Shown: in pieces, positions 36,403 to 58,159 of the stretch
Position numbering within the stretch: position 1 is the first letter of the stretch
How the letters are laid out: every line of letters begins with the position of its first letter
NCBI GenBank assembly: GCA_965263035.1
Contig: OZ253580.1
Span: forward strand, 2,400,001-2,464,000
DNA: 64,000 nt
Direction: 5' to 3'
Origin: Acidobacteriota bacterium
GTDB lineage: Bacteria > Acidobacteriota > UBA6911 > RPQK01 > JAJDTT01
Program-made: the position numbers and the translations under genes
The notes under the pieces: generated by a model
What the model saw: the letters and a program-made list of their open reading frames with translations, nothing else
Database searches by the model: none
What the model was told of the DNA's origin: nothing

Positions 36403-37044
36403 GTCGCGGTAGGGACGCCGGTTGCCCAGCGCCCCCCGCGCAGATCCGTGCGTGCCCGTTAAGGCACACGGCTCCTACCTCAGGTAATGACGGCAGGTCG
36501 CGACGCCCGCCGTATCCGACCCCCGCCTGTGTCACGGTAGCCCGGCTCTGAGTCCGGTCCGTACTTTGGTGAGCCGAATTCCCCTTGGTTCCACCCCTTC
36601 GCTCCACCGACTCCGCAGAGAGTTCCCCCTCCTTGTTCGCCCGCTTCATCACTACTATGGGTGAATCCGATTGCTTCCTCTCTCCCCTCATGGGTTACGG
36701 CTTTCCCCTTTCCCACAAGGCCCCGGCTTTCGCCGGGGAGAGAGTAAGCCCTCCCAGGTCCCGACACCAGATGTACGTACGTGCATGGGTTCTTTGACAC
36801 CGCAGAGCCCGGCTGCCCCTCACCCTGGCGGTCCAGCCGGTGTTGCCTTCGACCGCGACTACAGCCTCGGCACTTCCGATCAGGGAGCTTTCGATGCTCA
36901 ATAGCCTGCCCATACGCACCGCTACCGACGCTTCGCCGACACCCTCACGGGTGCCCACGCACGGCTCGCGGAGAAACGTGGATGGTTAGTCCTTCGTTTC
37001 AGCGGACTTTCACCGCCTATCTTGTGCCAGTTAGCCTGGCGCAC
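36403..37044 (-). ncRNA. ORF-less group II intron (IIB-type), 642 nt
   Basis: 5' GTGCG at 37044; domain V GAGCCGTGTGCCTTAACGGGCACGCACGGATC; domain VI ending CCCTACCGCGAC; flanks rejoin to a REP hairpin. Confidence 0.88.
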
Positions 37045-43391: not shown

Positions 43392-43451
43392 TGTATAGGG
43401 GGGACTCCGTCCCCTTACCCCCCTAATCGGCGACAAGAAAGTCGCCGCTCC
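43392..43451 (+). repeat. partial composite REP element; unoccupied group IIC target site
   Basis: GGGGACTCCGTCCCC..CGGCGACAAGAAAGTCGCCGCTC|C, same as the 5' exon of both IIC introns. Confidence 0.8.
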
Positions 43452-44867
43452 TTACCTGGCGGCTCGGTACCGTTTGAGCTTCGAGATAATCGTCTGACGG
43501 CTCACCTGGAGCGCTTCAGCGGCCCGGCTCCGGTTATTGTCATGGACGCGGAGGGCCTCCAGGATGAGCTCGCGTTCCAGTTGCGCCAACCGCTGCTTCA
43601 AGGAACTGTGGTCGGGCCCCGATTCGGGTGGAAAGGAGATCCTCCCCGACAGCGCCGAGGGTGAAATGGGGCGGCCCGGGTCGGCAAGAATGACCAGCCG
43701 CTCCACTTCGTTCTCCAATTCCCGGACATTGCCGGGCCAGGAATAGCCGCGGAGCACTTCCAGTGTCGTTGGATCGAAACGACAGGCGAACTTGTTCAGC
43801 CGTCTGCAGGAACGCTCCAGAAAGAACTGGGCCAGCTCGTCCACGTCCTCCGGCCGGATCCTGAGGGGAGGCACCATGACGGTGAACACGTTGAGGCGGA
43901 AGAAGAGATCCTGCCGAAAGCGGCCTTCGGCGACCTCCCGGGTCAGGTCCCGGTTCGTGGACGCGACCACGCGGACGTCGACCTTCTTGGGAGCTTCCGC
44001 ACCCACCGGAAAGATCTCGCTCTCCTGAAGCGCCCGGAGCAGCTTCACCTGAAGGTCCAGCGGCGCCTCTCCCACCTCGTCCAAAAAAATAGTGCCGCCA
44101 TCGGCCAGTTCGAAGTACCCCTTCTTCTCCCCCGTCGCACCGGTGAAGGCTCCCTTCTTGTGACCGAAAAACGCGCTCTCCACCAGGTCGGCCGGGACGG
44201 CGCCGCAGTTGACCGGCACGAAGGCCTCCTCCGCTCTGGGGCTCCCATCATGGACGTATCGGGCCAGAAGCTCCTTTCCGGTTCCGGTCTCCCCCTGGAG
44301 AAAGACCGTAGAACCGGTGGGGGCCACCCGGTCCAGCAAACGAAGCAGCGCCCTGATGGCTCGGCTGCGGTAAACGAGCCTTGGTTTGGAGTCTTCCAAG
44401 AACTGCTTTTCCTCTCGCAGCTTCAGGTTCTCCGCCTCGAGACGGCTGTTGATCCGGTGGAGCTCCCTTCCGAGACGCTCCTGCTCCCGCTTCAACTCCC
44501 AGCGGCCCAACTCCTGTTTCACCACTTTCCGCAGAGAGTGGGGATCCCAGGGTTTGGTGATGTAACGATGGACGTGCCCCTGATTGATGGCGTCCATCAG
44601 GTCCTCGGACTCGGTGTAGCCGGTGAGGATGATCCGGACCGTGTGGGGCCGGATCTGCAGCGAACGATGCAGCAGTTCCACACCACTCATGGCCGGCATC
44701 CGTTGATCGGTGATGACGGCCGAGACCCCCCTCCGGCGCAGCAAGTCCAAAGCCTCCCGGGCGGAGGAGGCCTCCAGCACCTCGTAATCGTTGATGAAGG
44801 TGCGGCGCAGCTTCTGAAGATTGCCCGCCTCGTCGTCGACCACCAGCAGTGAGTGCCTGTCATTCAT
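43452..44867 (-). CDS. NtrC-family sigma54-dependent response regulator
   Basis: Receiver DQRMP; GETGTGKE; GAFTGA; WPGNVREL; Fis-type HTH. Confidence 0.94.
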   Translation of the reverse strand: MNDRHSLLVVDDEAGNLQKLRRTFINDYEVLEASSAREALDLLRRRGVSAVITDQRMPAMSGVELLHRSLQIRPHTVRIILTGYTESEDLMDAINQGHVHRYITKPWDPHSLRKVVKQELGRWELKREQERLGRELHRINSRLEAENLKLREEKQFLEDSKPRLVYRSRAIRALLRLLDRVAPTGSTVFLQGETGTGKELLARYVHDGSPRAEEAFVPVNCGAVPADLVESAFFGHKKGAFTGATGEKKGYFELADGGTIFLDEVGEAPLDLQVKLLRALQESEIFPVGAEAPKKVDVRVVASTNRDLTREVAEGRFRQDLFFRLNVFTVMVPPLRIRPEDVDELAQFFLERSCRRLNKFACRFDPTTLEVLRGYSWPGNVRELENEVERLVILADPGRPISPSALSGRISFPPESGPDHSSLKQRLAQLERELILEALRVHDNNRSRAAEALQVSRQTIISKLKRYRAAR

Positions 44868-46981
44868 GATTTCAGGGGCAGCCGGACGCAGAAACGGGTG
44901 CCGCGTCCCACTTCGCTCTCCACTTCGATGGACCCTTGGTGCTGCTGCACGATCCCATAGCTGATACTCAGGCCCAGTCCCGTGCCCTGACCCACGGCCT
45001 TGGTGGTAAAGAAGGGCTCGAAGACCTTCCCCAGATGTTCCTTCCCGATCCCGGAACCATCGTCCTCGATCTCGATCACCGCCTCTCCGTTATCCGTCGA
45101 AGTCCGGATCCGAATCTCACCACGATCGGGAATGGCCTGACAAGCATTGGAGAGGACGTTCATGAAGACCTGGCTCATGCGCCCCGGGTGGCATTCCACC
45201 GGGGGCACGTCGCCATAGTCCTTCTGAATTCGGATCCGGTCGCGGTATTCGTTGTGCAGCAGGTTCAACGCCAGATCCAAAGGCTCCTGGATCGGAACCC
45301 GCTGCGTCTTGTCCACGTCCATCCTGGAGAAGGTCCTCAGGTCTCCGATGATGGCGTGGATTCGCTCGGCCCCCTCGTCGAAGTTGTCCATCAGGCGGTC
45401 GAGATCCTCGATGACGAAGTCGTAGTTGATGCGCCGCCGCAAGGAATCGAGCCTCTCTCGATCCTCGGGCTTGAGGCCGGAATGGCTATCGTAGAAGTGG
45501 ATCACCTCTTCCAACTTCTGAACGTACTGGCGCAGGAAGTCGGTGTTGCCGTAGATGAAGTTGAGGGGATTCTTGATCTCGTGGGCGATGCCGGCGACCA
45601 GTTGGCCCAGCGACGCCATCTTTTCGCTCTGGACCAGTTGTACCTGGGTGTCCTTGAGTTCCTGATACGCCTTCCGAACTTCCCGGCCGGTCCGCTCCAG
45701 CTCGCTGGTCCTCTTCTTGACCTTCTCTTCCAGGCTTCGATTGAGCTCGATCAGGGCCTGGCTCCGATCCTGAAGCGACTGGGCCATTTCATTGAAGGTC
45801 ACGGCCAACTCGCCGATCTCGTCCCGGGAGGCCACCTGCACCCGCTGGTCCAGCTCGCCGCCGGCCAGCACGCGGGCGCCCCGGGTGAGCCGCTTGACCG
45901 GGATGGTGATGCCCCGCGCGATGGAGTAGGTCAGCAGCCCCACCAGCACGGCGGTCAGCGAGACGGCCCCCAGCAGCACCTGCTTGAGGTCCTGCACGGG
46001 GGCGAAGATGTCTTCGTCGTTGATGCCCACTCCGCAGATCCACTGAAAAAATTCATGATTCACCACCGCCAGACCGCTGATCTTGGAGGTGCCGGGAGGA
46101 TACTCGTAGTAGAAATGGGTGGTTCCGGCGACGATGGCATCCTGGAGGTCATCGAGGCCGTGGTCCTCCACCAGACGCGAGCCGTAGTTGTCCACCAGGG
46201 GGACTCTCCCCCCTCCCGAACCGGGCCGATTCCTCCGGTATTTGTGCCCGATGACGGTATTCACGTCCTTTCCGAAGAGAAAGGCGTATCCGGAGGTCAG
46301 GGAGCGCTGCTCCAGGTCCTCTTCGATCTTGTCCAGGAACGCCTGGACATACTCCCAGTTCATGTAGGCCAGAACCCCTCCCACCACCGCCCCCGTCCCG
46401 GACATGAAGGGGGCCGCGAATCCGATGGATCTCTGGCGGGCGATATCGTCGTCCTGATAGGAATAGAGTTGCCGAATCAGGGGCGAGGCGTGCCAGTCCA
46501 GGTAGCCGAAACGCCCTTGACGGACCTCCTCCAGCCAACTGCCGTCCCCGGTGTAGGAAAGGAGGCTCTGCCCCTGCAGGCGCGCGAGCCGTTCCGGGTC
46601 CAGGCTCACTCCCACGGCGTTCCGGTCGATGCTGCTGGTGGAGAGCACACGGCCCTCCACATCGAACAGCACCAGCAGGTCGTAGACCTCGTGCACCACC
46701 ACCAACTGGTTCAGCAGCAGCGTGGGAGGATCGACTCGCCGGATCAGATAGTCTCCCAGTTCCCGGTGGAGGGTCATGGAGACCGTCTCCTCCTTCTTCT
46801 CCAGGATCGAAAGCCGGATGTTGTCGGCGATGTCCTGGGCGACCTGCTCCAGATAGAGGACGATCCGGTCCTGGGTGATGCGCTCTTTGGCCTGGTGGTA
46901 GGCGAAGGCACAGATGGCGGCCAACGGGATCACCGCCAAGGGGAGAATGAAGAGGACCAGTTTGTGCCGAAGGCTTCTCAC
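44864..46981 (-). CDS. membrane sensor histidine kinase (periplasmic sensor, HAMP)
   Basis: Two TMs; DEIGELA..FN; GIAHEIKNP; FFTTK..G.GTGLGL. Confidence 0.93.
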   Translation of the reverse strand: MRSLRHKLVLFILPLAVIPLAAICAFAYHQAKERITQDRIVLYLEQVAQDIADNIRLSILEKKEETVSMTLHRELGDYLIRRVDPPTLLLNQLVVVHEVYDLLVLFDVEGRVLSTSSIDRNAVGVSLDPERLARLQGQSLLSYTGDGSWLEEVRQGRFGYLDWHASPLIRQLYSYQDDDIARQRSIGFAAPFMSGTGAVVGGVLAYMNWEYVQAFLDKIEEDLEQRSLTSGYAFLFGKDVNTVIGHKYRRNRPGSGGGRVPLVDNYGSRLVEDHGLDDLQDAIVAGTTHFYYEYPPGTSKISGLAVVNHEFFQWICGVGINDEDIFAPVQDLKQVLLGAVSLTAVLVGLLTYSIARGITIPVKRLTRGARVLAGGELDQRVQVASRDEIGELAVTFNEMAQSLQDRSQALIELNRSLEEKVKKRTSELERTGREVRKAYQELKDTQVQLVQSEKMASLGQLVAGIAHEIKNPLNFIYGNTDFLRQYVQKLEEVIHFYDSHSGLKPEDRERLDSLRRRINYDFVIEDLDRLMDNFDEGAERIHAIIGDLRTFSRMDVDKTQRVPIQEPLDLALNLLHNEYRDRIRIQKDYGDVPPVECHPGRMSQVFMNVLSNACQAIPDRGEIRIRTSTDNGEAVIEIEDDGSGIGKEHLGKVFEPFFTTKAVGQGTGLGLSISYGIVQQHQGSIEVESEVGRGTRFCVRLPLKS

Positions 46982-47061
46982 GGCGTTCCCTTCAATGTCC
47001 AGTTTATAGACAGTTCAGTGACAAATTCTACAACATTCGGTCTCTGTGTCAACGGACCGGT

Positions 47062-47240
47062 GGGAGCGCGACTTTCTTGTCGCCCACTGGGAGAGCCGGC
47101 TTTCTTGTCGCCCATTGGGAGAGGCGGTTTTCTTGCCGCCTCCTCTTCTTTGTTGCTATGCGATTCTGTAGGCAGCAAGTGTAGAGTGGGGGACTCCGTC
47201 CCCCCTGCCCCCCTGGTCGGCGACAAGAAAGTCGCCGCTC
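47062..47240 (+). repeat. composite REP element (three hairpins, linker, terminal hairpin) forming the 5' exon of the intron
   Basis: Reverse-complement homologue of 31953-32004 plus 33375-33502, and of 56546-56680. Confidence 0.85.
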
Positions 47241-47870
47241 GTGCGCCCGACATGGGCTGTATCTAAGGGATGAAAGATCCCAAGGGAGGTGATGGGACCA
47301 ACCCTAGCCGAACCGCAAGGCGTAGCCGCGAGGTGAAGCTGAAGGAAGCGGAAGGCAAACCCACGACCGCAGGAACACGAACCGGCAGCGAGGCCGGGTG
47401 CGGGCGGTGAGCTGGCGAGCAACAGCGAAACCCGAACCCCATCCAGACGTACCAGGTAGAGCCGGGCGGCCCGGGGGGAAAGATGCAGCACCTTACTCGG
47501 GGAGATCTCAAGGGTGAGAGCCTTTGAGAAGTCAGCAGAGGTCATAGTAGCGAAGAAGCCGGATAATGCCGGTGGAGCGAAGGACCGAAGGAGTCGGACG
47601 GGCCCTATGGTGGACTCGTCAGCGGGATCGCAACTACCTCCGGAAACGGGGCGGGGGGAGGCCCCTCGGACCCGGCACGGAAGGCCCAAGGGTGGAACCC
47701 GTCAAGCCGGAAGGGCGGAGATCAAGTCCCAGCGGCGGCGAAAACCGGAAAGAAAGGCCCTTTACGAGGCTCGAAAGAGCCTCGAGTGACTCCAACCGCC
47801 GGATACTGAAAACGGTACGTCCGGTGGTGTGGGAGGGTGCAGGGGCGCAATCCCCTGCACTCGACCCGAT
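47241..47870 (+). ncRNA. ORF-less group IIC intron, 630 nt, copy 1
   Basis: 5' GTGCGCCC; IIC-type domain V AACCGCCGGATACTGAAAACGGTACGTCCGGTGGT; 3' ..CGACCCGAT; domain IV ~200 nt closed by GAGTC/GACTC with no RT ORF. Confidence 0.92.
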
Positions 47871-47874
47871 CCGT

Positions 47875-48987
47875 TCAGGCGGGTCGGAAGGTCTCGGATC
47901 GAACGGTGATCCGATCGATCCACTCCAGGTCTGGTTCGTAACCGATCCCGGGGTCCGTGGAAGGAGTGATGGTCCCGTCCGAGTCGACTTCGATGGGAGG
48001 ACGAGCCGTGTCCCGATGGAAATAGCGGCGGCTGGCCGAGACGTCTCCGGGGAGAGTGAAGTTCTCCAGAGTGGAGAGAGCCACATTGTGGGCGCGTCCG
48101 ATGCCGGTCTCCAACATCCCTCCGCACCAGACCGGAACGCCTCGGGCCTGGCAGACGTCGTGGACCGCCTTGGCCTCGGTGTGTCCCCCCACACGCCCCA
48201 TCTTGATGTTGACGATGCGGCAGGCTCCCACGGCGATGGCATGGTCCGCGTCCCGCCGGTGGCGAATCGATTCGTCCAGACAGATGGGGGTCCGGAGCCG
48301 GGCCTGGAGCTCGACGTGCCGGAAGACGTCGTCGTACTCCAGGGGCTGCTCCATCATCAGCAGGTTGAACTGGTCCAGTTCCGCCAAGTGGTCGAAGTCG
48401 GCCAAGCCGTAGGCGGAGTTGGCGTCCACCATGAGCGAGATCGTGGGAAAGCGCTGGCGGACGGCGGCCACGATGTCGAGGTCCCAACCCGGCTTGATCT
48501 TGATCTTGATCCGCTGGTATCCCGCCTCCATCTCCTCCTCGATCTTGCGCAGGAGAATGTGGGGGTGATCCTGGATGCCGATGGAGACGCCGCAGGGGAT
48601 CCGGCGATGGCGTCCCCCCAGAAGCTTCCACAGGGGCACTCCCGCCGCCTTGGCCTGGAGATCCCAGAGCGCCGCCTCCAGACCGGCCTTGGCCATGGGA
48701 TGCCCCCGCACCGATCGGACCCAGCCCGGAAACTCGTCCGCCCGGCTGAAGCGGACATCCAGCATCCGAGGGACCAGGAACCGGCTCAGGACCGGCCAGA
48801 CGGTGTCCACCGTCTCATAGCTGAATCCTGGCGCATCGTCGGCGACACACTCACCCCAGCCGGAGAGCCCGTCCGCCCGGACTTCCGCCAATAGGACCCG
48901 GCGGCCGTAGACCCGGCCGAAGCTGGTCTCGAAGAAATGGACGAGAGGAAGGCTGATTTCGCGAACGACAACCCGCTCCAGCTTCAC
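47875..48987 (-). CDS. menC: o-succinylbenzoate synthase / N-acylamino acid racemase (enolase superfamily)
   Basis: KIKI, VDANSAY, EQP, LDES, NIKMGRVGG, WCGGMLE. Confidence 0.85.
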   Translation of the reverse strand: MKLERVVVREISLPLVHFFETSFGRVYGRRVLLAEVRADGLSGWGECVADDAPGFSYETVDTVWPVLSRFLVPRMLDVRFSRADEFPGWVRSVRGHPMAKAGLEAALWDLQAKAAGVPLWKLLGGRHRRIPCGVSIGIQDHPHILLRKIEEEMEAGYQRIKIKIKPGWDLDIVAAVRQRFPTISLMVDANSAYGLADFDHLAELDQFNLLMMEQPLEYDDVFRHVELQARLRTPICLDESIRHRRDADHAIAVGACRIVNIKMGRVGGHTEAKAVHDVCQARGVPVWCGGMLETGIGRAHNVALSTLENFTLPGDVSASRRYFHRDTARPPIEVDSDGTITPSTDPGIGYEPDLEWIDRITVRSETFRPA

Positions 48988-50603
48988 TCTTTCCGCTTTC
49001 CTCTTTTCTGCTCACTCTCTCCTCTCCTCCCCCATCCCCCTCCCCCGGGGGTCTCGATCCGGATGGCCTGCCCGGCCGTGAGCTGAAGAGACACCTTGCC
49101 GGCGAGGTTTCTACGACGGCCCCGGTCCACCAGGTAGTTCCGGCCCTTCTTCCCGGTCTCTCCTCCGTTGAGTCCGTAGGGAGGGTTGACCCGCCTCTCC
49201 GAGAGGATGGTGGTGGTGCAGTCGGTCAAGGCCTCCAGGGTCCGGACGATTCCATCCCCGCCTCGATACCTGCCCTTGGCGCCAGACCCGGATCTCAATC
49301 GGTACTCCCGAACCCGAAGCGGGAAATCGTACTCCAAGGCTTCGATGGGCGTGTTCAGGGAGTTGGTCATATGGGTGTGCACGCCGCTGTTTCCGTGGCC
49401 GGCCGGGCCGGCCCCCATGCCGCCTCCGATGGTCTCGTAGTAGGAAAAGGGCTTGCCCGTGCCGGGGTGGATCCCGCCGATCGAGATGTTGTTCATGGTG
49501 CCGCTGCTGGCGGCCGGGATCTGGTCGGGAAGGGCTTGGGCCAGGGCCCGGAGCAGGACGTCCACGATCCGCTGGGAGGTCTCCACGTTGCCGCCGGCCG
49601 TCGCCGCCGGAAACCGGGCGTCCACCACGCTTCCCTGCGGCGTGGAGACGCGGACCGAGCGCATCAGCCCGGCGCTGGCCGGAGCATAGTCCGGAGCCAG
49701 ACAGCGGAGAACGTAGTAGACGGCGGACCGGGTGACGGCGCGGACGGCGTTGAGGCAGCCGGGAATCTGGGGAGCCGACCCCGCAAAATCGATCTTCATG
49801 GAATCCCCCGAGACCCGGATGCTGACGCGAATCGGGACCGGCTCCGATCCCTCCTCGGGGCCGCCCTCATCCAACAGGTCCTCGGCCGTGTAGCGGCCGT
49901 CCGGGATCCGGCGAATGGTCTGGCGCATGATCTTCGCCGAATAGTCCTGCAGAGCCCGGCAGTACTCTTCGACCTCGGCTCTCCCGTTCTTTTCGACCAG
50001 CGCCCGCAGCCGCCTGTCGCCGACTCTCAGCGACCCCACCTGGGCGGCCAGATCCCCTTCCCGCTCGAGGGGTGTGCGGACGTTGCTGAGGAAGAGGCGG
50101 AGCAGGTCGACGTTCAATCGGCCCCGCCGGTAGAGCTTGGACGGCGGAATCCGGATTCCCTCCTGAAAGACATCCCGGCTCAGGGGCATGGAGCCGGGGG
50201 ACATTCCCCCCACGTCCGCGTGATGGGCGCGAACGGCCACATGGAAGACGGGGCGGACGAACTTGTCCGAAGGTTCGAACACGGGCGCCACCATGGTGAG
50301 ATCGGGCAGGTGGGTCCCCCCGGCGAAGGGGTCGTTGAGAATCACCACATCGCCCGGCCGCAACGGTTCGTGGTCGAGAGCCGCCTGGACCGACATGGGC
50401 ATGGAGCCCAGATGGACCGGCATATGGTCCCCCATGGCCACCAGTTGCGCCTTCGAGTCGAAGAGCGCGCAGGAATAGTCTCGACGCTCCCTGACGTTGG
50501 AAGAATAGGCGGTGCGGTGGAGCACCGTCCCCATCTCCTCGGGGACCGAGGTCAGAAGATGCCGGTAGACCTCAAGACGGACGGGATGGATACGTTTCGC
50601 CAC
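48984..50603 (-). CDS. hydantoinase B / 5-oxoprolinase family subunit
   Basis: RTAYSSNVRERRDYSCA, PVHLGSM, NDPFAGGTHLPD, TPGGGGWG. Confidence 0.9.
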   Translation of the reverse strand: MAKRIHPVRLEVYRHLLTSVPEEMGTVLHRTAYSSNVRERRDYSCALFDSKAQLVAMGDHMPVHLGSMPMSVQAALDHEPLRPGDVVILNDPFAGGTHLPDLTMVAPVFEPSDKFVRPVFHVAVRAHHADVGGMSPGSMPLSRDVFQEGIRIPPSKLYRRGRLNVDLLRLFLSNVRTPLEREGDLAAQVGSLRVGDRRLRALVEKNGRAEVEEYCRALQDYSAKIMRQTIRRIPDGRYTAEDLLDEGGPEEGSEPVPIRVSIRVSGDSMKIDFAGSAPQIPGCLNAVRAVTRSAVYYVLRCLAPDYAPASAGLMRSVRVSTPQGSVVDARFPAATAGGNVETSQRIVDVLLRALAQALPDQIPAASSGTMNNISIGGIHPGTGKPFSYYETIGGGMGAGPAGHGNSGVHTHMTNSLNTPIEALEYDFPLRVREYRLRSGSGAKGRYRGGDGIVRTLEALTDCTTTILSERRVNPPYGLNGGETGKKGRNYLVDRGRRRNLAGKVSLQLTAGQAIRIETPGGGGWGRRGESEQKRGKRKE

Positions 50604-50627
50604 GGCAGCAAAGATAGCAGAGAATGA

Positions 50628-50853
50628 GGAGCGGCGGTTTCCAGCCGCCGGACTCCCAAGGAAACAAGGGGGCGGGCGTGGAGCGGCGGTTTCCAGCCGC
50701 CGGACTCCCAAGGGAACAAGGGGGCCGGCGTGGAGCGGCGGTTTCCAGCCGCCGGACTCCCAAGGGAACGACGGGGCGGGCGTGGAGCGGCGAATAGAAG
50801 AGGGGGCGACTGGAAATCGCCCCTCCTTTGGGCGACAAGGATGTCGCCCCTCC
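50628..50853. repeat. tandem REP array: three 52-bp units, a partial unit and two further hairpins
   Basis: GGAGCGGCG starts at 50628, 50680, 50732, 50784; hairpin GGCGG-TTTCCAG-CCGCC. Confidence 0.9.
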
Positions 50854-50889
50854 GGAGTGGGAAACCGGCTGTTATAATCGCGCGCTCTC

Positions 50890-51744
50890 ATGCGACGACT
50901 GGTGCTTACGCTGCAGATGATCAAGTTCGAGCACACCGTCTTCGCCCTGCCCTTTGCTTTTCTGGGAGCCCTTCTGGCCCAGCGCGGGCTGCCCGGGGGC
51001 GAGACCTGTCTCTGGATCGTTGGAGCCATGGTGGGAGCGAGAAGCGCGGCCATGGCCTTCAATCGACTGGTGGACCGGCGCCAGGACCGGCTCAATCCCC
51101 GGACCGCCGGACGGGAGCTGCCACGGGGACTGCTGGAACCCGGTTTCGTCATCGGCTTCATTGTGGCGTCCGCGGGGCTCTTCTTCTTCTCGGCCTGGAG
51201 GTTGAATCCGCTCGCCCTGCTGCTGTCGCCGCCGGCCCTGGTCATCGTCCTGCTCTACAGCTATACGAAGAGGTTCACCTCGCTGTCCCACCTGTTCCTG
51301 GGCCTCTCCCTGGCCATCGCTCCGGTCGGGGGATGGGTGGCGGTGCGGGGTGAGCTGTCCGCAGGCCCATTCTACCTGGCGGCCGCCGTTCTGCTCTGGG
51401 TGGCCGGCTTCGACATCATCTATTCCTGCCAGGACGTGGACTTCGACCGCCGCCTGGGCCTGTACTCGATCCCGGGCCGCCTGGGAGTGGCCGCGGCCCT
51501 GAAGATCTCGCCGCTCCTCCACGCCGGGATGGTGGCCGTCCTGGGATACGCTTTTCACTCCTTCGATCTGGGCCTGTTGAGTTGGGCCAGTCTGATTCTG
51601 GTGACAGCCGCCCTGATCTACGAACATCGAATCGTCAGTCCTACCGACCTGAGCCGGGTCAACGCCGCGTTTTTTGCGGTCAACGGCGTTATCAGTCTAG
51701 GGCTGCTTCTGTTCGTAGGTCTGGATCTATGGCTGTTCCGGTAG
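50890..51744 (+). CDS. UbiA-family prenyltransferase (MqnP-like)
   Basis: KFEHTVFALPF, FNRLVD..D..NPRT..R, YSYTKR, FDIIY..QD..FD. Confidence 0.88.
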   Translation: MRRLVLTLQMIKFEHTVFALPFAFLGALLAQRGLPGGETCLWIVGAMVGARSAAMAFNRLVDRRQDRLNPRTAGRELPRGLLEPGFVIGFIVASAGLFFFSAWRLNPLALLLSPPALVIVLLYSYTKRFTSLSHLFLGLSLAIAPVGGWVAVRGELSAGPFYLAAAVLLWVAGFDIIYSCQDVDFDRRLGLYSIPGRLGVAAALKISPLLHAGMVAVLGYAFHSFDLGLLSWASLILVTAALIYEHRIVSPTDLSRVNAAFFAVNGVISLGLLLFVGLDLWLFR

Positions 51745-52994
51745 ACGAATCTCCGACCCTGGCCTTGGACCTCTCGACCCGGACCCGGCCGGGAGAAACT
51801 TCTCTCCCGCCGGATGGGCGGGAGCCTGTGGTCCGCATGGTGGACCTCATCGTCTTCGACGCCATCGGCAAGAGAGCCAGCGACATTCATCTGGAGACCT
51901 ACGACGGGGAGTTCCGGATCCGCTACCGGATCGACGGGGTCCTCTATCCGGTCGCCGCGCCGCCCCTGGCCCTTCGGGATGCCCTCATTTCCCGAGTCAA
52001 GATCCTGGGCGATCTGGACATCGGCGAACGGCGGCTTCCCCAGGACGGCCGAATCCGGATGAAGGTTCCGCAGTCCGGAGAGGACCGTGAGATCGATCTC
52101 CGCGTCTCCTCCCTCCCCACCATTTTCGGAGAAAAGCTGGCATTGAGGATCCTGGACCGGGAGCACCTCCCGCGGAGCCTGTCCGAACTCGGGCTGGAGG
52201 AGGTCTCCCTCGAGCGGCTGAGGAGAGCCCTGCGGAGATCCCATGGAATCGTGCTGGCCACCGGCCCCACCGGTAGCGGCAAGACCAGCACCCTCTACAC
52301 CTGCTTGTCCCGGCTCAACCACCCCGGAACGAACATCAATACCGTGGAGGACCCGGTGGAGTTCAACCTCTCGGGGATCAACCAGGTCCAGACCAAGGAC
52401 TCGGTGGGTCTGAGCTTCGCCACAGCACTCCGGGCTCTGCTGCGCCAAGACCCGGATGTCCTTATGGTGGGGGAGATCCGGGACCGGGAAACCGCGGAGA
52501 TCGCCATTCGCGCCGCCATCACCGGACACTTGGTGTTGAGCACCCTGCATACGAACGACGCCGCATCGACGGTGGGCCGGCTGCTGGACATGGGGATTCC
52601 TCCGTTCCTCATCGCCAGTTCGGTGAACCTGGTGTGTGCCCAACGGCTGGTGAGGAGGCTGTGCGGGGAATGCAAGGAGCCTAACCGGGCCCCGGTTCCG
52701 ATCCCGGAACCGGCCGGAACCGGGACCGACCCGATCCTCAAGATCTCCCGCTTCGACGCCCGGGGTTGCCCCGCCTGTCACGGCACGGGCTATCGAGGGA
52801 GGATCGGACTGTTCGAAACCATGGAGGTGACCGAGACCATCCAGCAACTGATCCTCCAGGGTGCCGACGACGCCAGGATCCGGAAACAGGCGGTCAGCGA
52901 GGGGATGGTCACCCTGCGGGGCAGCGGACTGGAGAAGATTCGTTCCGGCGTCAGCACCGTGGAGGAGGTGCTGAAGGCCACGCACCTCGCTTGA
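51729..52994 (+). CDS. pilB: type IV pilus / T2SS extension ATPase (PilB/GspE), short N-terminus
   Basis: ASDIH, RLPQDG, GPTGSGKT, LRQDPD, tetracysteine motif. Confidence 0.88.
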   Translation: MAVPVDESPTLALDLSTRTRPGETSLPPDGREPVVRMVDLIVFDAIGKRASDIHLETYDGEFRIRYRIDGVLYPVAAPPLALRDALISRVKILGDLDIGERRLPQDGRIRMKVPQSGEDREIDLRVSSLPTIFGEKLALRILDREHLPRSLSELGLEEVSLERLRRALRRSHGIVLATGPTGSGKTSTLYTCLSRLNHPGTNINTVEDPVEFNLSGINQVQTKDSVGLSFATALRALLRQDPDVLMVGEIRDRETAEIAIRAAITGHLVLSTLHTNDAASTVGRLLDMGIPPFLIASSVNLVCAQRLVRRLCGECKEPNRAPVPIPEPAGTGTDPILKISRFDARGCPACHGTGYRGRIGLFETMEVTETIQQLILQGADDARIRKQAVSEGMVTLRGSGLEKIRSGVSTVEEVLKATHLA

Positions 52995-53005
52995 CCCGGT
53001 GAGTA

Positions 53006-54094
53006 ATGGAGGTTGAACAGACGCGTCCCACGGGACAGATCCTGAAGCTGTTGCGGCTGGCCCACGACTCCGGCGCCAGCGACCTGCATCTCATTCCCGA
53101 TTCCGTACCCTGCCTGCGTGTCCACGGCCGGCTCGTGGCCGCGAACCATCTCCGGCTGAACCTGGAAGAGACTCGGCACTTGGCCTACGGCATCATGTCC
53201 GACCGGCAAAGGGCCCGCTACGAGCGTCTCCGGGAGATCGACTTCAGCTTCGAGGTGGAGGGCCTGTCCCGATTCCGCGCCAACGTCTTCACCCGCCGTG
53301 GAAAGACGGCGGCAGTCGTACGTCTCATCCCGCTTCAGGTCAAACGCCTGGAGGAGTTGGGACTGCCGGCGGTGGTGGATGGTCTGGCCGTCCGGCCCCG
53401 CGGCCTGGTCCTGGTCGCCGGCTCCTCGGGCAGCGGCAAGTCGACCACGCTGGCGGCTCTCATCGACCGGATCAATCGAACCCAGGCCAAACACATCATC
53501 ACCATCGAGGACCCCATCGAGTTCGTGCACCACAACCACATGAGCGTCGTCAGCCAGAGGGAGGTGCCGGGGGATTCCTCCTCGTTTGCGTCGGCGCTCC
53601 GCATGGCCCTGCGGCAGGACCCCGATGTGGTCCTGGTGGGGGAGATGAGGGATACCGAGACCATCGAGACCACTCTCCGGCTGGCGGAAACGGGGCATCT
53701 GACCCTTTCCACCCTCCACACCCGATCGGCCCCCGACACCATCGGGAGAATTCTGGACATGTTCCCTGGCGATCAGCAGGGCCGGATCCAGTCCCTTCTC
53801 TCCTCGGTCCTGGAGGGAATCGTCTGTCAGGCCCTGATCCCGTGCCGGAAGGAGCCGGGGCGGGTCGTGGCCGCGGAAGTCCTGATTCCCAACCCGGCCA
53901 TCCGGAACCTGATCCGCGAGCAAAAGCTCCACCAGATCCGCTCGGCCATGCAGACAGGCCAGGCCGGAAGCGGGATGTGCACCCTGAATCAGAGCCTGGC
54001 CAGGCTCTTCCTCGCCGGCCGGATCTCCTACGAGACCTGCCTGGAGGTCTCGCAGGACGCTGCCGACCTGCGGCGGTGCCTGGATCGGCCGTAG
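53006..54094 (+). CDS. pilT: type IV pilus retraction ATPase
   Basis: ASDLH, GSGKSTT, TIEDPIE, AETGHL, AIRNLIRE. Confidence 0.93.
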   Translation: MEVEQTRPTGQILKLLRLAHDSGASDLHLIPDSVPCLRVHGRLVAANHLRLNLEETRHLAYGIMSDRQRARYERLREIDFSFEVEGLSRFRANVFTRRGKTAAVVRLIPLQVKRLEELGLPAVVDGLAVRPRGLVLVAGSSGSGKSTTLAALIDRINRTQAKHIITIEDPIEFVHHNHMSVVSQREVPGDSSSFASALRMALRQDPDVVLVGEMRDTETIETTLRLAETGHLTLSTLHTRSAPDTIGRILDMFPGDQQGRIQSLLSSVLEGIVCQALIPCRKEPGRVVAAEVLIPNPAIRNLIREQKLHQIRSAMQTGQAGSGMCTLNQSLARLFLAGRISYETCLEVSQDAADLRRCLDRP

Positions 54095-54145
54095 GGCCGC
54101 CCCTCCGGTTCACTGTTTTCCAACCCCCAATCGTTACCAATATCA

Positions 54146-55246
54146 GTGGACACTCCGAACGAGCGGGAATGGCGTCCCCGCCGTATTGCTCAGGCTCGAA
54201 TCGGAAGGATCTCGACCCGGCAGCTGGCCCTGTTCACGCGGCAACTGTCGGTGATGCTGGGGGCGGGCGTCTCGCTGGTGTCGGCCCTGCAGAACCTGGC
54301 GCAACAGGAGGAGAACCGCGCCCTGGGCACCACCCTGCGCCAAGTCCGTTACGACGTGGAATCGGGGTCCACGCTGGCTGCGGCGCTGGAACGCCATCCC
54401 CGTGTCTTCGATCCCCTATTCGTCAACCTGGTCCGGGCGGGAGAGACGGGTGGATTTCTGGACACCGTGTTCAAGCGTCTCACCCGATTCTTGGAAAAGA
54501 GGCTCCAGTGGCGCAAGGCGGTGCTCTCGGCCTCTCTCTATCCGGCGGTCGTCATCATGACTTCGTTCATGGTCGTGGGCGTCATCCTGGTCTGGGTGAT
54601 TCCGGTCTTCGCATCCCTCTTCGCCAACCTGGACCTCCCCCTCCCATTGCCGACGCGGATGGTCATGGGAGCCAGCGGGTTCCTGAGCCGGTGGGGAGTG
54701 CCCCTGAGCCTGGGGGCGGGGACGGCGGCCCTGGCGGGTGGATTCTACTTTCGAACGGCCAAGGGGCGGAGGTGGGTGGATCGATTCATCCTGGCGGCCC
54801 CGCTGTTGGGCCCGGTGACGACCCAACTCCTGACGGCCCGTTTCGCACGGACCTTTTCCACCCTCCTTTCCAGCGGAGTCCCCATCCTGGAAGCCATGGA
54901 CCTGACGGCGCGGGCTCTGGGGAACGTGCGGTTTCAAGAAACGGTGCTGGCGCTCCGGAGTAAGGTCGAGTCGGGGAGCACCTTGGCGGAACCATTCCGG
55001 CACAGCGGCCTCTTTCCCCAGATGGCGTCGGAAATCATTCGGATCGGCGAGTTGACGGGCACGCTGGACGACATGCTTCTGAAACTGGCCGTCTACTACG
55101 AGGAGGAAGCGGACACCAGCATAAACCGGTTTCTGGCGCTCCTGGAACCCATGATGATGTTGGTTCTGGGTATCGTCGTCGGCGGCATGGTGCTTTCCAT
55201 GTATATGCCCATCTTCAGCCTCATGGGGCGGCTTTCCAGCTTCTGA
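54146..55246 (+). CDS. pilC: type IV pilus platform protein (PilC/GspF)
   Basis: FTRQL..ML.AG, AGETGG.L, GELTG.L, LLEP, MYMPIF. Confidence 0.92.
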   Translation: MDTPNEREWRPRRIAQARIGRISTRQLALFTRQLSVMLGAGVSLVSALQNLAQQEENRALGTTLRQVRYDVESGSTLAAALERHPRVFDPLFVNLVRAGETGGFLDTVFKRLTRFLEKRLQWRKAVLSASLYPAVVIMTSFMVVGVILVWVIPVFASLFANLDLPLPLPTRMVMGASGFLSRWGVPLSLGAGTAALAGGFYFRTAKGRRWVDRFILAAPLLGPVTTQLLTARFARTFSTLLSSGVPILEAMDLTARALGNVRFQETVLALRSKVESGSTLAEPFRHSGLFPQMASEIIRIGELTGTLDDMLLKLAVYYEEEADTSINRFLALLEPMMMLVLGIVVGGMVLSMYMPIFSLMGRLSSF

Positions 55247-55345
55247 GGAACCCGGAGCCGGAATCGGAAATTCTTCTCATGGATACGCGGGCGGGGACGT
55301 TTCATACTATGCAAGGACGAGACAGCAAGCGAGGATGAAATAATC

Positions 55346-55909
55346 ATGCTCCAACGAACCAAGGTCTTTCCGGTGTCCGACTGCGGAGCCCGGATCCGAA
55401 AAGAGTCCGGCAGCTCTGCCTCGATGCCCTCTCACTCTCCCCAGAACGGAGCTGCCGGATTCTCTCTGATCGAACTCATGATCGTGGTGGCCATCATCGG
55501 GATCATCTCCATTCTGGCGGTTCCCAATTTCATGCGTTCCCGGCTCTTCGCCAACGAAACTTCGGCCATCGCCTCGCTCCGGGTCACCGTCACGAGCGAG
55601 ATCACCTATGCCTCCACCGTGGGGAACGGATCCTTCGGTAGTACAGAGGACTTGTTGGACAACGGGCTGATCGATGCGGCGCTGGGGTCCGGCACCAAGG
55701 ACGGCTACAACCTGAGCCTGACGGCGGACGGAGCCAGTGGATTCACGGTCACCGCCGTTCCCGTCACGGCGGGCACCACCGGACAGCGGGGATTCTATGC
55801 CGATCAGACCGGGGTGATCCGGTACAGCGAGGACGGATCGGCGCCGACCGCGGCCAGTCCCGCATTGGGCACCGAGAGCGCGAAGGAAGAAGAAACGGAC
55901 GGAGATTAA
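55346..55909 (+). CDS. type IV pilin
   Basis: G|FSLIELMIVVAIIGII prepilin motif; alternative start at 55424. Confidence 0.88.
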   Translation: MLQRTKVFPVSDCGARIRKESGSSASMPSHSPQNGAAGFSLIELMIVVAIIGIISILAVPNFMRSRLFANETSAIASLRVTVTSEITYASTVGNGSFGSTEDLLDNGLIDAALGSGTKDGYNLSLTADGASGFTVTAVPVTAGTTGQRGFYADQTGVIRYSEDGSAPTAASPALGTESAKEEETDGD

Positions 55910-55915
55910 GGATGG

Positions 55916-56545
55916 ATCGGGTCGAGTGCAGGGGATTGCGCCCCTGCACCCTCCCACACCACCGGACGTACCGTTTTCAGTATCCGGCGGTTGGAGTCAC
56001 TCGAGGCTCTTTCGAGCCTCGTAAAGGGCCTTTCTTTCCGGTTTTCGCCGCCGCTGGGACTTGATCTCCGCCCTTCCGGCTTGACGGGTTCCACCCTTGG
56101 GCCTTCCGTGCCGGGTCCGAGGGGCCTCCCCCCGCCCCGTTTCCGGAGGTAGTTGCGATCCCGCTGACGAGTCCACCATAGGGCCCGTCCGACTCCTTCG
56201 GTCCTTCGCTCCACCGGCATTATCCGGCTTCTTCGCTACTATGACCTCTGCTGACTTCTCAAAGGCTCTCACCCTTGAGATCTCCCCGAGTAAGGTGCTG
56301 CATCTTTCCCCCCGGGCCGCCCGGCTCTACCTGGTACGTCTGGATGGGGTTCGGGTTTCGCTGTTGCTCGCCAGCTCACCGCCCGCACCCGGCCTCGCTG
56401 CCGGTTCGTGTTCCTGCGGTCGTGGGTTTGCCTTCCGCTTCCTTCAGCTTCACCTCGCGGCTACGCCTTGCGGTTCGGCTAGGGTTGGTCCCATCACCTC
56501 CCTTGGGATCTTTCATCCCTTAGATACAGCCCATGTCGGGCGCAC
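55916..56545 (-). ncRNA. ORF-less group IIC intron, 630 nt, copy 2
   Basis: Reverse complement of 47241-47870; same length; overlapping spurious ORFs translate identically. Confidence 0.92.
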
Positions 56546-56680
56546 GAGCGGCGACTTTCTTGTCGCCGACCAGGGGGGCAGGGGGGACGGAGTCCCCACT
56601 TTACACTTTCCGGCCTCTACACTTCCCGCCCACTGAATCGCCTAACAACACAAAAGAGCAGGCGGCAAGAAAGCCGCCTG
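56546..56680 (-). repeat. composite REP element forming the 5' exon of intron copy 2
   Basis: GAGCGGCGACTTTCTTGTCGCCGACCAGGGGGCAGGGGGGACGGAGTCCCC..GAATCGC..GGCGGCAAGAAAGCCGCC. Confidence 0.85.
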
Positions 56681-56711: not shown

Positions 56712-56905
56712 ACCCATGGTGGGTGAAGAGGGCCAACCGGCCGGGAGCTACCATAAAGCCGCAGCGCTCTCAGAGCACCTGGAGGGGACTCGTGCCCCGG
56801 CCGGTAGCCGCGATGGAGAACCTGTGGGAAGTCAGTGTCCAAGAACACCAGTACAGGAACCGATCCGAATCGCGGCGGCCCGACGTCCATTTAATCACTA
56901 GGAGG
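56712..56905 (+). ncRNA. putative IS110 bridge RNA
   Basis: Contains exact 10-11 nt matches to the right target flank and to the donor junction. Confidence 0.65.
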
Positions 56906-56911
56906 TTCGGG

Positions 56912-58159
56912 ATGAAACCAAGTCAATGGTTTGTGGGGGTCGATTGGGCGTCCCAGGCGCACCAAGTCTGCGTCGTGGATGAGCGAGGCACCTGTCAGGG
57001 ACAGCGCAGCTTCCCGCACAGCGGTTCGGGCCTGGCCCAGATGGCCGACTGGATCCTGCAGCAGACGGGGACGAGAGCGGAGGCCGTCTCGGTGGCGATT
57101 GAAGTGCCGCACGGTCCGGTGGTGGAGTTTTTGATGGGGCGATGCTTTGTCGTGTATGCCATCAATCCGAAGCAGCTGGATCGATTCCGCGACCGCTTCT
57201 CGCCGGCAGGCGCCAAGGATGACCGCCGCGATGCCCGAGTGCTGGCCGACGCGATCCGAACCGACGGCCATCGCTGGCAACGGCTGGAACCGGTCGATTC
57301 TGAAATGATCCAGCTGCGCGAGTTCTCAAGACTGGGTGCGCAGTTGACCCGCGATCGGACCCGGCTTCTCAACCGCCTGCGCCAACAACTCTGGCGCTAC
57401 TATCCGCAGTTCCTACACCTGAGCAAGGATCTCGCCGAGCCCTGGGTGATGGAAGTGTGGAAGCTGGCCCCGACACCGGATGCGGCCCGGAAGCTGCGCC
57501 CGAGCCGGGTCGCCAAGGTGTTGAAAAAGCATCGGATCCGGCGTATCGACGCCCCAGAGGTCCTGCGTCGCTTGCGGGTACGCTCCCTCCCGGTCGCCCC
57601 GGGCACCACCCAGGCGGTGAGGGTCCACATCGAAAGTCTCGGTGAGCGCCTGGCCGTGGTGCGGAACCAACTCCGGGACATCTCTCGTGAGCTCGACCGT
57701 TTGATCCGGGCTTGGGAGAAGCGGTGCGAGTCGACGCCGGGGCCCCAAGGACCGTGCCGGGACGTGGCGATCCTCGCCTCCCTGCCCGGCGTCGGCCGAA
57801 TCGTCCTGGCCACCCTGCTCTCGGAAGCCTTCGATGCGATCCGGCGCCGAGATTACGCCGCTTTGCGATGTCTGTGCGGGGTGGCCCCCGTGACCCGGAG
57901 TTCCGGCAAATACACCCGTGTCGTGCGCCGCCAAGCCGTTCATCCTCGTCTGCGGGAAGCGGCCTATCATTGGTCGCGCGTGGCCACGCAACACGACCCC
58001 ATCAGCCGAGCCAAGTACGCTGCCCTGCGGGAGCGCGGCCACGGCCATGCCCGGGCCCTGCGGTCCGTTGCCGATCGCCTGCTGGCGGTGGCCTGCGCCA
58101 TGTTGCGAGACCAGACGGAATACGATGCGAATCATGCAAGACAGCGCCGGGCTGCTTGA
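56912..58159 (+). CDS. IS110-family recombinase/transposase
   Basis: GVDW, IEVP, KDDRRDA, SLPGVG, PVTRSSG; AGGAGG RBS. Confidence 0.93.
   Translation: MKPSQWFVGVDWASQAHQVCVVDERGTCQGQRSFPHSGSGLAQMADWILQQTGTRAEAVSVAIEVPHGPVVEFLMGRCFVVYAINPKQLDRFRDRFSPAGAKDDRRDARVLADAIRTDGHRWQRLEPVDSEMIQLREFSRLGAQLTRDRTRLLNRLRQQLWRYYPQFLHLSKDLAEPWVMEVWKLAPTPDAARKLRPSRVAKVLKKHRIRRIDAPEVLRRLRVRSLPVAPGTTQAVRVHIESLGERLAVVRNQLRDISRELDRLIRAWEKRCESTPGPQGPCRDVAILASLPGVGRIVLATLLSEAFDAIRRRDYAALRCLCGVAPVTRSSGKYTRVVRRQAVHPRLREAAYHWSRVATQHDPISRAKYAALRERGHGHARALRSVADRLLAVACAMLRDQTEYDANHARQRRAA

Follow-up and report, generated by a model that had tools for sequence, protein, structure and literature searches.

What are the two long inverted repeats in this stretch of an Acidobacteriota genome, and how did both come to lie behind the same kind of DNA hairpin? 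The window (the whole 64,000-nucleotide stretch analysed, G000:C1:2400001-2464000) is part of a single 6.2-Mb contig of 62% G+C. A repeat search of the window recovered two inverted arms, 47189-47872 and 55914-56597, each 684 nt long, 100% complementary to one another and spaced 8041 nt apart; chance is excluded as the source of this perfect repeat, which lies far beyond it. Each arm is made up of a 52-nt flank resembling a repetitive extragenic palindrome (REP), a 630-nt element and the dinucleotide CC, and outside the arms the sequences flanking the two copies are unrelated. Since the inverted repeat is perfect, the units at 47241-47870 (+) and 55916-56545 (-) are identical. We conclude, with a probability of about 0.85, that they belong to a non-autonomous family of class C group II introns (IIC) that retrohomes in trans into REP hairpins, most likely with a reverse transcriptase (RT) borrowed from two intact sister copies. 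A first-pass annotation, made from the letters of the window, had described two identical introns lacking an open reading frame (ORF), both preceded by ...GGCGACAAGAAAGTCGCCGCTC, followed directly by CC and entering unrelated sequence beyond. That description holds, with the identity extending 52 nt upstream and 2 nt downstream of the element; both copies are real, but the pair makes up only two of about 24 copies in the genome.

Judged from its Rfam matches and predicted fold, the 630-nt element is a group II ribozyme, as first proposed. Both window copies match the models for domain 1 (D1) and for the D2-D3 region above gathering (Table 1), and the D5-D6 model RF00029 reaches 40.4 bits, also above gathering, on six other genomic copies. 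The D5 and D6 hairpins, the D5 bulge and the unpaired adenosine of D6 were all recovered in an RNA fold (z = -8.2). GTGCG at the start and AT at the end fit the 5' GUGYG and 3' AY rule for intron boundaries. D1-D3 is small, ending at about nt 345 of the intron, and 58 of its 78 predicted pairs carry compensatory changes in an RNAalifold analysis of 24 related introns. There is no RT gene within the 630-nt element; alignment with 1848-nt copies of the same genome places the absence of about 1.2 kb in D4. What persists is a reading frame of 60 codons (47607-47789 (+), mirrored in copy 2) that spans the deletion, opening with the start codon of the former RT gene and closing with its stop; Pfam gives no match to it. 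We term the element ORF-less because no RT is encoded, although this N-terminal remnant of the RT remains.

The first-pass annotation had suggested looking for a class C RT elsewhere in the genome, and two intact genes were found. Both 1848-nt copies encode the same 466-aa RT/maturase (P0001) in open frames with no stops. P0001 contains RVT_1 and GIIM (group II maturase) as its only Pfam domains, with no endonuclease (En) domain, and scores 362.7 bits against the NCBIfam group II RT/maturase equivalog TIGR04416. Its best solved relative is the GsI-IIC RT, matched over nearly the full length (E 3.7e-134, 451 bits), followed among solved structures by the IIC RT of 7uim (346 bits) and two IIC RT-domain crystals; LtrA (124 bits) and TeI4h (110 bits) are far behind. 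Relatives inserted at terminators in Niallia, Alicyclobacillus and Paraburkholderia match the same pair of Rfam D1-D4 models. Because the RT is closest to solved IIC RTs, lacks an En domain, and these terminator-inserted relatives share the D1-D4 models, the 630-nt family is placed in class C, by a ranking of solved RTs and not a reference phylogeny. A reduced D1 and the replacement of the AGC catalytic triad in D5 by CGC are typical of IIC introns. Outside the genus, the closest RTs are 68% identical and occur in records titled Acidobacteriota (including Bryobacterales) and Verrucomicrobiota metagenome-assembled genomes.

The genome was searched by blastn with the 630-nt unit, giving 30 high-scoring segment pairs that resolve into 24 insertions and one 51-nt fragment. 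Nineteen insertions are full-length ORF-less copies of 94.9-100% identity, two are the ORF-containing copies (529488-531335 (-) and 2572796-2574643 (-), differing at 6 nt), and three are ORF-less copies split by insertions (G000:C1 3067627-3070027, 3923178-3925592 and 5180457-5185638). Two of the split copies contain the same insertion sequence (IS) of about 1.8 kb, with an rve/HTH_21 transposase, at different positions; the third is broken by a 4.7-kb block that encodes a large serine recombinase and contains another ORF, which gives HTH matches and an rve match below threshold. RT-less and RT-encoding copies stand at 22 to 2, or 11 to 1. One deletion junction is common to all 22 ORF-less copies: the 19 full-length copies align there without indels, and the three split copies cover the same query coordinates. 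Ten copies form a young subfamily with 0-3 differences from its consensus, which fits a recent burst of the deleted form; both window copies belong to it and have a marker, 361T>G, in common with three others. Seven copies form an older subfamily (13-31 differences), and those at 4234234 and 4838477 are mosaics of young and old markers. Over nt 1-517 the ORF-less copies are 91-92% identical to the resident ORF copies.

These patterns bear on a different history, in which the autonomous RT-encoding intron first invaded the sites and the ORF was removed later, by repeated identical deletions or by gene conversion with a single deleted copy as donor, so that the ORF-less RNA itself never moved. 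The mosaics do indicate that recombination among copies occurs, and ORF loss recurs in the lineage. Sister genome G001 has a single copy, which is ORF-less; in G003, five ORF copies accompany one that is ORF-less; G004 has one ORF copy; and the fragmented assembly G008 has one assembled ORF-less copy plus many contig-end pieces. In the three sister species with ORF-less forms the deletion junctions differ, that of G001 resembling a longer version of the present one. Within this genome, however, all 22 ORF-less copies have one junction and just two ORF copies are left, conversion would have had to sweep 22 dispersed loci, a D4 segment shared by the ORF-less copies (nt 355-440) differs from both resident ORF copies, and the ten nearly invariant copies fit spread of the deleted form itself. 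We regard later loss of the ORF as unlikely. Among the genomes searched, the large expansion is peculiar to this one.

The insertion sites define a target rule. Each of the 24 insertions lies downstream of a hairpin, directly after the GCTC into which the 3' arm of that hairpin continues; at least six stem sequences occur at occupied sites (including GGCGAC, GGCGGC, GGGGGTT, GGGGAC and GGCCATC). The 3' boundary is exact (the intron ends in ...CGAT) and is followed in most copies by unrelated DNA; sequences farther upstream are also unrelated in most copies, in several already at 30-70 nt. As single-stranded DNA the target site at copy 1 folds into two hairpins (-15.8 kcal/mol, z = -3.5). The earlier proposal of a short intron-binding site 1 (IBS1) combined with an upstream stem-loop is borne out by this count and these flanks.

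The hairpins are part of a repeat that has the properties of a REP: it is a short imperfect palindrome with many copies in both orientations, intergenic at the intron sites, and present in clusters and arrays. Its strict core, GGCGRCAAGAAAGYCGCC, occurs 170 times in the genome (92 forward, 78 reverse) and is followed by GCTC in 92 of the 170, 17 of these 92 sites being occupied by an intron. An empty site that the first-pass annotation had placed at 43450 is present in the window as an unoccupied strict REP site. The repeat was found in four of five sister genomes searched; in G003 the strict REP occurs in arrays of 28-nt period. The window also holds, at 50628-50792, a tandem array of three 52-nt units, each with a REP-like hairpin of the GGCGG-TTTCCA-GCCGCC type. 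Elsewhere in the genome, ORFs at G000:C1 2482813-2483487 (-) and 3478081-3478464 (+) give partial matches to Y1_Tnp (IS200-like; 35 and 39 bits, about half of the profile) and are candidate REP-associated transposases; one of them lies directly beside a copy of a second intron family described below. Matches to Y1_Tnp as partial as these (35-39 bits) do not establish a link of the REPs to REP-associated tyrosine transposases (RAYT).

Five 100% identical introns were found behind four different hairpins, which argues for independent insertions and not for duplication of REP plus intron. Spread of the two as one piece of DNA without an RNA intermediate, whether REPs are transposed (a Y1/RAYT-type enzyme could do this) or the DNA is duplicated or recombined, could draw on the 52 identical nucleotides of upstream REP in the window copies, on the tandem and inverted REP clusters, and on the two ORFs with partial Y1_Tnp matches. 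Against it, the 52-nt flank equals the REP consensus of other sites, this common form being present also at 4234234; identical introns lie behind at least four hairpin sequences; several copies are unrelated 30-70 nt upstream; and the exact 3' boundary gives way to unrelated DNA in most copies. Nor does it explain the covariation of the intron with its exon end or, given the opposite bias of empty REPs, an occupancy that depends on orientation, both described below. Movement as a DNA unit is very unlikely on these grounds.

Recognition of the exon end can be traced to four bases. The tetranucleotide GAGC at 47417-47420, in a GCTG/CAGC loop, had been pointed out in the first-pass annotation as complementary to the exon end GCTC, and covariation across related introns gives strong support to reading this predicted pairing as that of exon-binding site 1 (EBS1) with IBS1. 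We extracted 55 distinct related introns; in 51 of them the loop was present together with 4 nt or more of the 5' exon, and there were 24 different exon ends. With G-U allowed, all four antiparallel pairs form in 29 of the 51 and three of four in the remaining 22, with fewer in none; when exons were reassigned among the introns at random (2000 shuffles) the mean number of introns with four of four pairs was 5.5 and the maximum 14. ORF-less copies of the same genus combine a GAGG loop with a CCTC exon end, and distant relatives have TGGC with GCCA, TAGC with GCTA and AACA with TGTT. Two further ideas about recognition were rejected. IBS3 does not act as a discriminator: C is the +1 base of all 75 strict sites without an intron and of 23 of the 24 sites with one. 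EBS1 does not track the dominant REP tail of each species: in G001 the strict GCTC sites number 14 and the strict CCTC sites 0, yet its sole copy, with GAGG, sits behind a CCTC-tailed variant hairpin.

Insertion is also biased with respect to replication. The dnaA gene lies at 2871758-2873065, the cumulative GC-skew minimum (2873574) coincides with it, and the skew maximum falls between 5.54 and 5.85 Mb. We scored an element as co-oriented where its sense strand is leading-strand sequence, that is, where the target is on the lagging-strand template. By this definition 19 of the introns are co-oriented, four are anti-oriented and one is ambiguous (binomial p 0.0026); window copy 2 is co-oriented and window copy 1 is among the four that are anti-oriented. 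In empty REPs the bias runs the other way: occupied strict sites comprise 14 co- and 3 anti-oriented, empty strict sites 19 co- and 56 anti-oriented, which corresponds to occupancies of 14/33 and 3/59 (Fisher p = 2e-5). In a looser census, which counted every perfect 6-9-bp stem that has a loop of 4-8 nt and is followed by GCTC, occupancy was 17/269 for co-oriented and 4/275 for anti-oriented sites. Such a bias is expected if nascent lagging strands prime an RT that lacks an endonuclease, and a preference of class C introns for the lagging-strand template has been reported (PMC8919778).

Contigs of four public sequencing runs (X10, X11, X15 and X18) were compared with window 46700-48400. In X10, a contig of 669 nt agrees with 47871-48400 at every position and then runs on for 105 nt in which the intron is missing; its joint, from 47240 to 47871, leaves out exactly 630 nt, whose ends are GT..AT. 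A 363-nt contig of the metatranscriptomic run X15 has this joint too. A form therefore exists in which the hairpin and GCTC directly abut the 3' exon, and whether the joint is an empty allele or ligated exons, it supports a discrete, precisely bounded element. Runs X11 and X18 contained no contig bridging the site and are uninformative in either direction. In X18, labelled 'sponge metagenome', pieces of unique flank of 226, 215 and 120 nt match with 2, 1 and 0 differences; coverage of the unique flanks with few differences in the metatranscriptomic runs X18 and X15 is a hint of habitat only. The conserved D3 segment 47555-47611 collects introns of other organisms in all four runs. We rejected an estimate of expression from read depth (intron bins of about 600-1229 in X15 against flanks of 5-28), as depths are summed over contigs and organisms and DNA is possible in the library. 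Also rejected were 'back' joints (for example 47871 to 47217) as local rearrangements; they fit other copies followed by a second REP.

In these runs the short-read contigs break at the intron borders, as they might if the repeats were an assembly artefact, a collapsed or misplaced repeat. That explanation has to contend with 24 copies in distinct contexts on one 6.2-Mb contig, with related copies in sister genomes, and with a summed contig depth over the intron of about 9-20 times that of the unique flanks in two runs without recorded library type, a depth that is no copy number. An artefact is accordingly close to negligible as a reading of the pair.

Retrohoming in trans would proceed as follows. 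In an ancestral intron, a single internal deletion in D4 would have removed about 1.2 kb of the RT/maturase gene, leaving an element with the whole ribozyme (D1-D3, D5 and D6) and the 5' part of D4. The 630-nt RNA would be transcribed and excised with the help of the 466-aa RT/maturase from the two sister introns, and the resulting ribonucleoprotein (RNP) would reverse-splice into single-stranded DNA at a REP-like hairpin, recognised by its shape and by the 4-bp EBS1-IBS1 pairing (GAGC with GCTC). Because the RT lacks an endonuclease, we propose that synthesis of complementary DNA is primed by nascent lagging-strand DNA; insertions would then accumulate on the lagging-strand template. Mobilisation in trans, as the first-pass annotation had suggested, is supported by 22 RT-less copies with one junction, by identical introns at different hairpins, by the strand bias and by the intron-less form, from which we infer mobility.

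Several points weigh against this account. Splicing, RNP formation, retrohoming, the help given in trans by the RT and priming from the lagging strand are all deduced steps. On both window copies RF00029 scores 39 bits, 1 bit short of its gathering threshold of 40. The ORF-less and the resident ORF copies have clearly diverged further from each other at D4 nt 355-440 than elsewhere in the element; the resident RT may not be the original partner. The joint in X10 has 12 extra letters between its sides, ending in the hairpin 3' arm and GCTC, and the REPs upstream are thus arranged differently in that allele than in this genome; and since the library type of X10 is unrecorded, the joint could be an empty DNA allele or ligated exons. 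Both window copies are antisense to their flanking genes, which bears on the source of intron transcripts there. Finally, the strand bias could come in part from selection for co-orientation with leading-strand genes.

Table 1 Features of the two intron copies, their target sites and neighbouring genes (window positions)
Feature	Position	Strand	Evidence or remark
Copy 1, 630-nt ORF-less group II intron assigned to class C (GTGCG...CGAT)	47241-47870	+	Repeat, Rfam, genome blastn
D1 core	47322-47489	+	RF02001, 81.4 bits, gathering 32 (both copies)
Predicted EBS1, GAGC in the 8-nt loop GCGAGCAA of hairpin GCUG/CAGC (RF02001 model)	47417-47420	+	Rfam alignment, covariation
D2-D3 region	47492-47585	+	RF01998, 47.2 bits, gathering 35 (both copies)
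D4 remnant: first ~150 nt of RT gene (ATG 47607) and its stop (TGA 47787-47789)	47586-47793	+	Alignment with ORF copies; RNA fold
Hairpin capping the D4 remnant, CGAGGCTC-GAAA-GAGCCTCG	47765-47784	+	RNA fold, alignment with ORF copies
D5, 2-nt bulge on 3' strand; CGC at consensus AGC triad position	47796-47827	+	RF00029 alignment; fold
D6, unpaired candidate branch-site A at 47864	47830-47868	+	RF00029 alignment; fold
First hairpin of REP-like unit 5' of copy 1, GGGGGAC-TCC-GTCCCCC	47188-47204	+	Single-stranded DNA fold; within 52-nt shared flank
Copy 1 target hairpin, CGGCGAC / AAGAAA loop / GTCGCCG, 7 bp	47218-47237	+	Structural part of homing site; DNA fold
Predicted IBS1 GCTC, last 4 nt of 5' exon, overlapping last hairpin base pair	47237-47240	+	24/24 copies; covaries with EBS1 loop
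First 3'-exon base C, candidate IBS3	47871-47871	+	C in 23/24 copies, T in 1
Copy 2, identical to copy 1; predicted EBS1 at 56366-56369	55916-56545	-	Repeat and Rfam
Copy 2 target hairpin (56549-56568) and predicted IBS1 GCTC (56546-56549)	56546-56568	-	Repeat and sequence
Unoccupied REP target (hairpin and GCTC, then C), abutting stop of sigma-54 response-regulator gene	43411-43450	+	Repeat search, strict-site census
Sigma-54 response-regulator gene	43452-44867	-	Pfam check; 1 nt from empty REP site ending 43450
Histidine-kinase gene, one side of copy 1	44864-46981	-	Pfam check
Enolase-superfamily gene, other side of copy 1; stop 4 nt from copy 1	47875-48987	-	Pfam check
Gene with pilin-type N-terminal methylation motif, one side of copy 2	55346-55909	+	Pfam check
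IS110-family transposase gene (DEDD_Tnp_IS110 and Transposase_20), other side of copy 2, next to REP cluster hosting copy 2	56723-58159	+	Pfam

The genes around the copies were identified by Pfam checks of five window ORFs, and gene context across the genome by a crude ORF filter based on third-codon-position G+C (GC3). On these crude calls all 24 intron sites are intergenic; an upstream gene was called for 22 copies, of which 12 are oriented like that gene. A REP hairpin is often found right beside the stop codon of a convergent gene (at six intron sites the intron 3' end is 0-6 nt from the stop), and it would therefore form a 3'-terminal hairpin on the mRNA of that gene, where it might act as terminator or stabiliser. 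Several insertion sequences located at REPs belong to the IS110 family, the family of the transposase beside copy 2.

Comparison with known systems places the family among class C introns. Like GsI-IIC of Geobacillus stearothermophilus and the Eubacterium rectale intron (PDB 7uim), it has an RT, in its sister copies, that aligns with the GsI-IIC RT and has no En domain, together with the small D1-D3 of about 345 nt, insertion just after a DNA hairpin, a 4-nt IBS1 and a preference for the lagging-strand template (PMC8919778); hairpin-directed insertion is described as a hallmark of IIC introns (PMC12584367). Unlike typical class C introns, the window copies have no RT gene and RT-less copies are the majority, and in contrast to class C terminator sites the present hairpin is REP-like, lacks a T-run and is not an intrinsic terminator, with IBS1 overlapping the last stem pair. 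An IIC sub-lineage is reported to use the attC sites of integrons (PMC3001079), likewise a repeated, structured, non-terminator site folding as a single-stranded DNA hairpin; here the target is instead a chromosomal REP-like repeat, no integron context was seen, and the copies are without RT.

The closest precedent, by analogy, is provided by the ORF-less introns of Thermosynechococcus elongatus, of which 17 are reported with one break-point and mobilised in trans by driver intron-encoded proteins (IEPs) (Mohr, Ghanem and Lambowitz 2010, PMC2882425). As in those TeI3 introns, one D4 break-point is shared, both ends of the ORF are retained, and a few RT-encoding relatives accompany an ORF-less majority; a single deletion origin and a related intact RT gene in the same genome, as in a trans-mobilised type, were found here. 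TeI3 introns differ in belonging to an En-containing, chloroplast-like IIB lineage with long EBS/IBS pairings, whereas the present class C family would rely on hairpin shape and 4 bp. Unlike TeI3 as described there, all targets here belong to one REP family, and TeI3 mobility in trans was demonstrated experimentally where ours is deduced. REPs are known as landing sites for mobile elements: several insertion sequences sit at REPs, and a Pseudomonas putida group II intron does so in 2 of 9 copies (Tobes and Pareja 2006, PMC1525189). In contrast to these cases as reported, here 24 of 24 copies are at hairpins, at one exact position and on one strand, and the element is a non-autonomous ribozyme that is not driven by a transposase. 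We found no description of an ORF-less IIC family proliferating at REPs in the literature searched (supplements lay outside the search), and an earlier description is possible.

Two further group II intron families occur in this genome. Family 2 is a second ORF-less group II intron of 642-643 nt (RF02005, 165 bits; AGC in D5), with seven copies, at window 36403-37044 (-) and at G000:C1 680748, 2482159, 3066875, 3351629, 3743283 and 6114886. Its insertion point is within the loop of the REP hairpin that the class C family also uses, but on the other strand, and reconstructed empty sites read as REP. All seven copies are co-oriented with replication, and three at different sites differ by 0-1 nt. 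A blastn search of this genome found no RT-encoding relative of family 2, and no blastn similarity of family 2 to the class C family (family 1) or to the family-3 intron; in sister genomes, family 2 is ORF-containing in G002, G004 and G007 and ORF-less in G005, G006 and G007. Family 3 is RT-encoding (RF02003 D1 match, 92.6 bits; 426-aa IEP, TIGR04416 317 bits), with intact copies at 983769-984869, 5537513-5538613 and 5842098-5843198 and an interrupted copy at 5053504-5056830. An isolated D5-D6 match at G000:C1 340877-340952 (-), at 52 bits the best RF00029 match in the genome, is possibly a fragment or a fourth lineage; no D1-D4 model matched within the 3.3 kb examined around it.

The cognate RT of family 2 in G002 is 33% identical to the family-3 RT and 36% to the class C RT, the two kinds of RT present in this genome; no driver RT for family 2 was identified. 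It is conceivable, though doubtful, that degenerate introns, served by RTs that act in trans and are shared, find a safe harbour on both sides of the REP hairpin of the genus, class C introns landing after the hairpin and family 2 in its loop on the other strand. If the family-2 copies moved recently, a heterologous driver RT would mobilise them, and if that were true bacteria would show a move towards splicing and mobility machinery shared among protein-less introns.

For the class C family itself the finding is solid, instructive and mechanistically expected. The one well-studied case of proliferating ORF-less introns is the IIB lineage of a thermophilic cyanobacterium (PMC2882425), and a class C intron appears here to repeat the Thermosynechococcus pattern with a genus-wide REP hairpin as its harmless landing pad. 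Surveys of introns based on RT genes would undercount this genome about tenfold. The family offers a natural system for how a IIC RNP reads DNA shape and 4 bp, for how single-base changes in EBS1 may retarget an intron between REP variants (GAGC/GCTC against GAGG/CCTC), and for the co-evolution of non-autonomous introns with a shared RT, which bears on models for the origin of spliceosomal introns.

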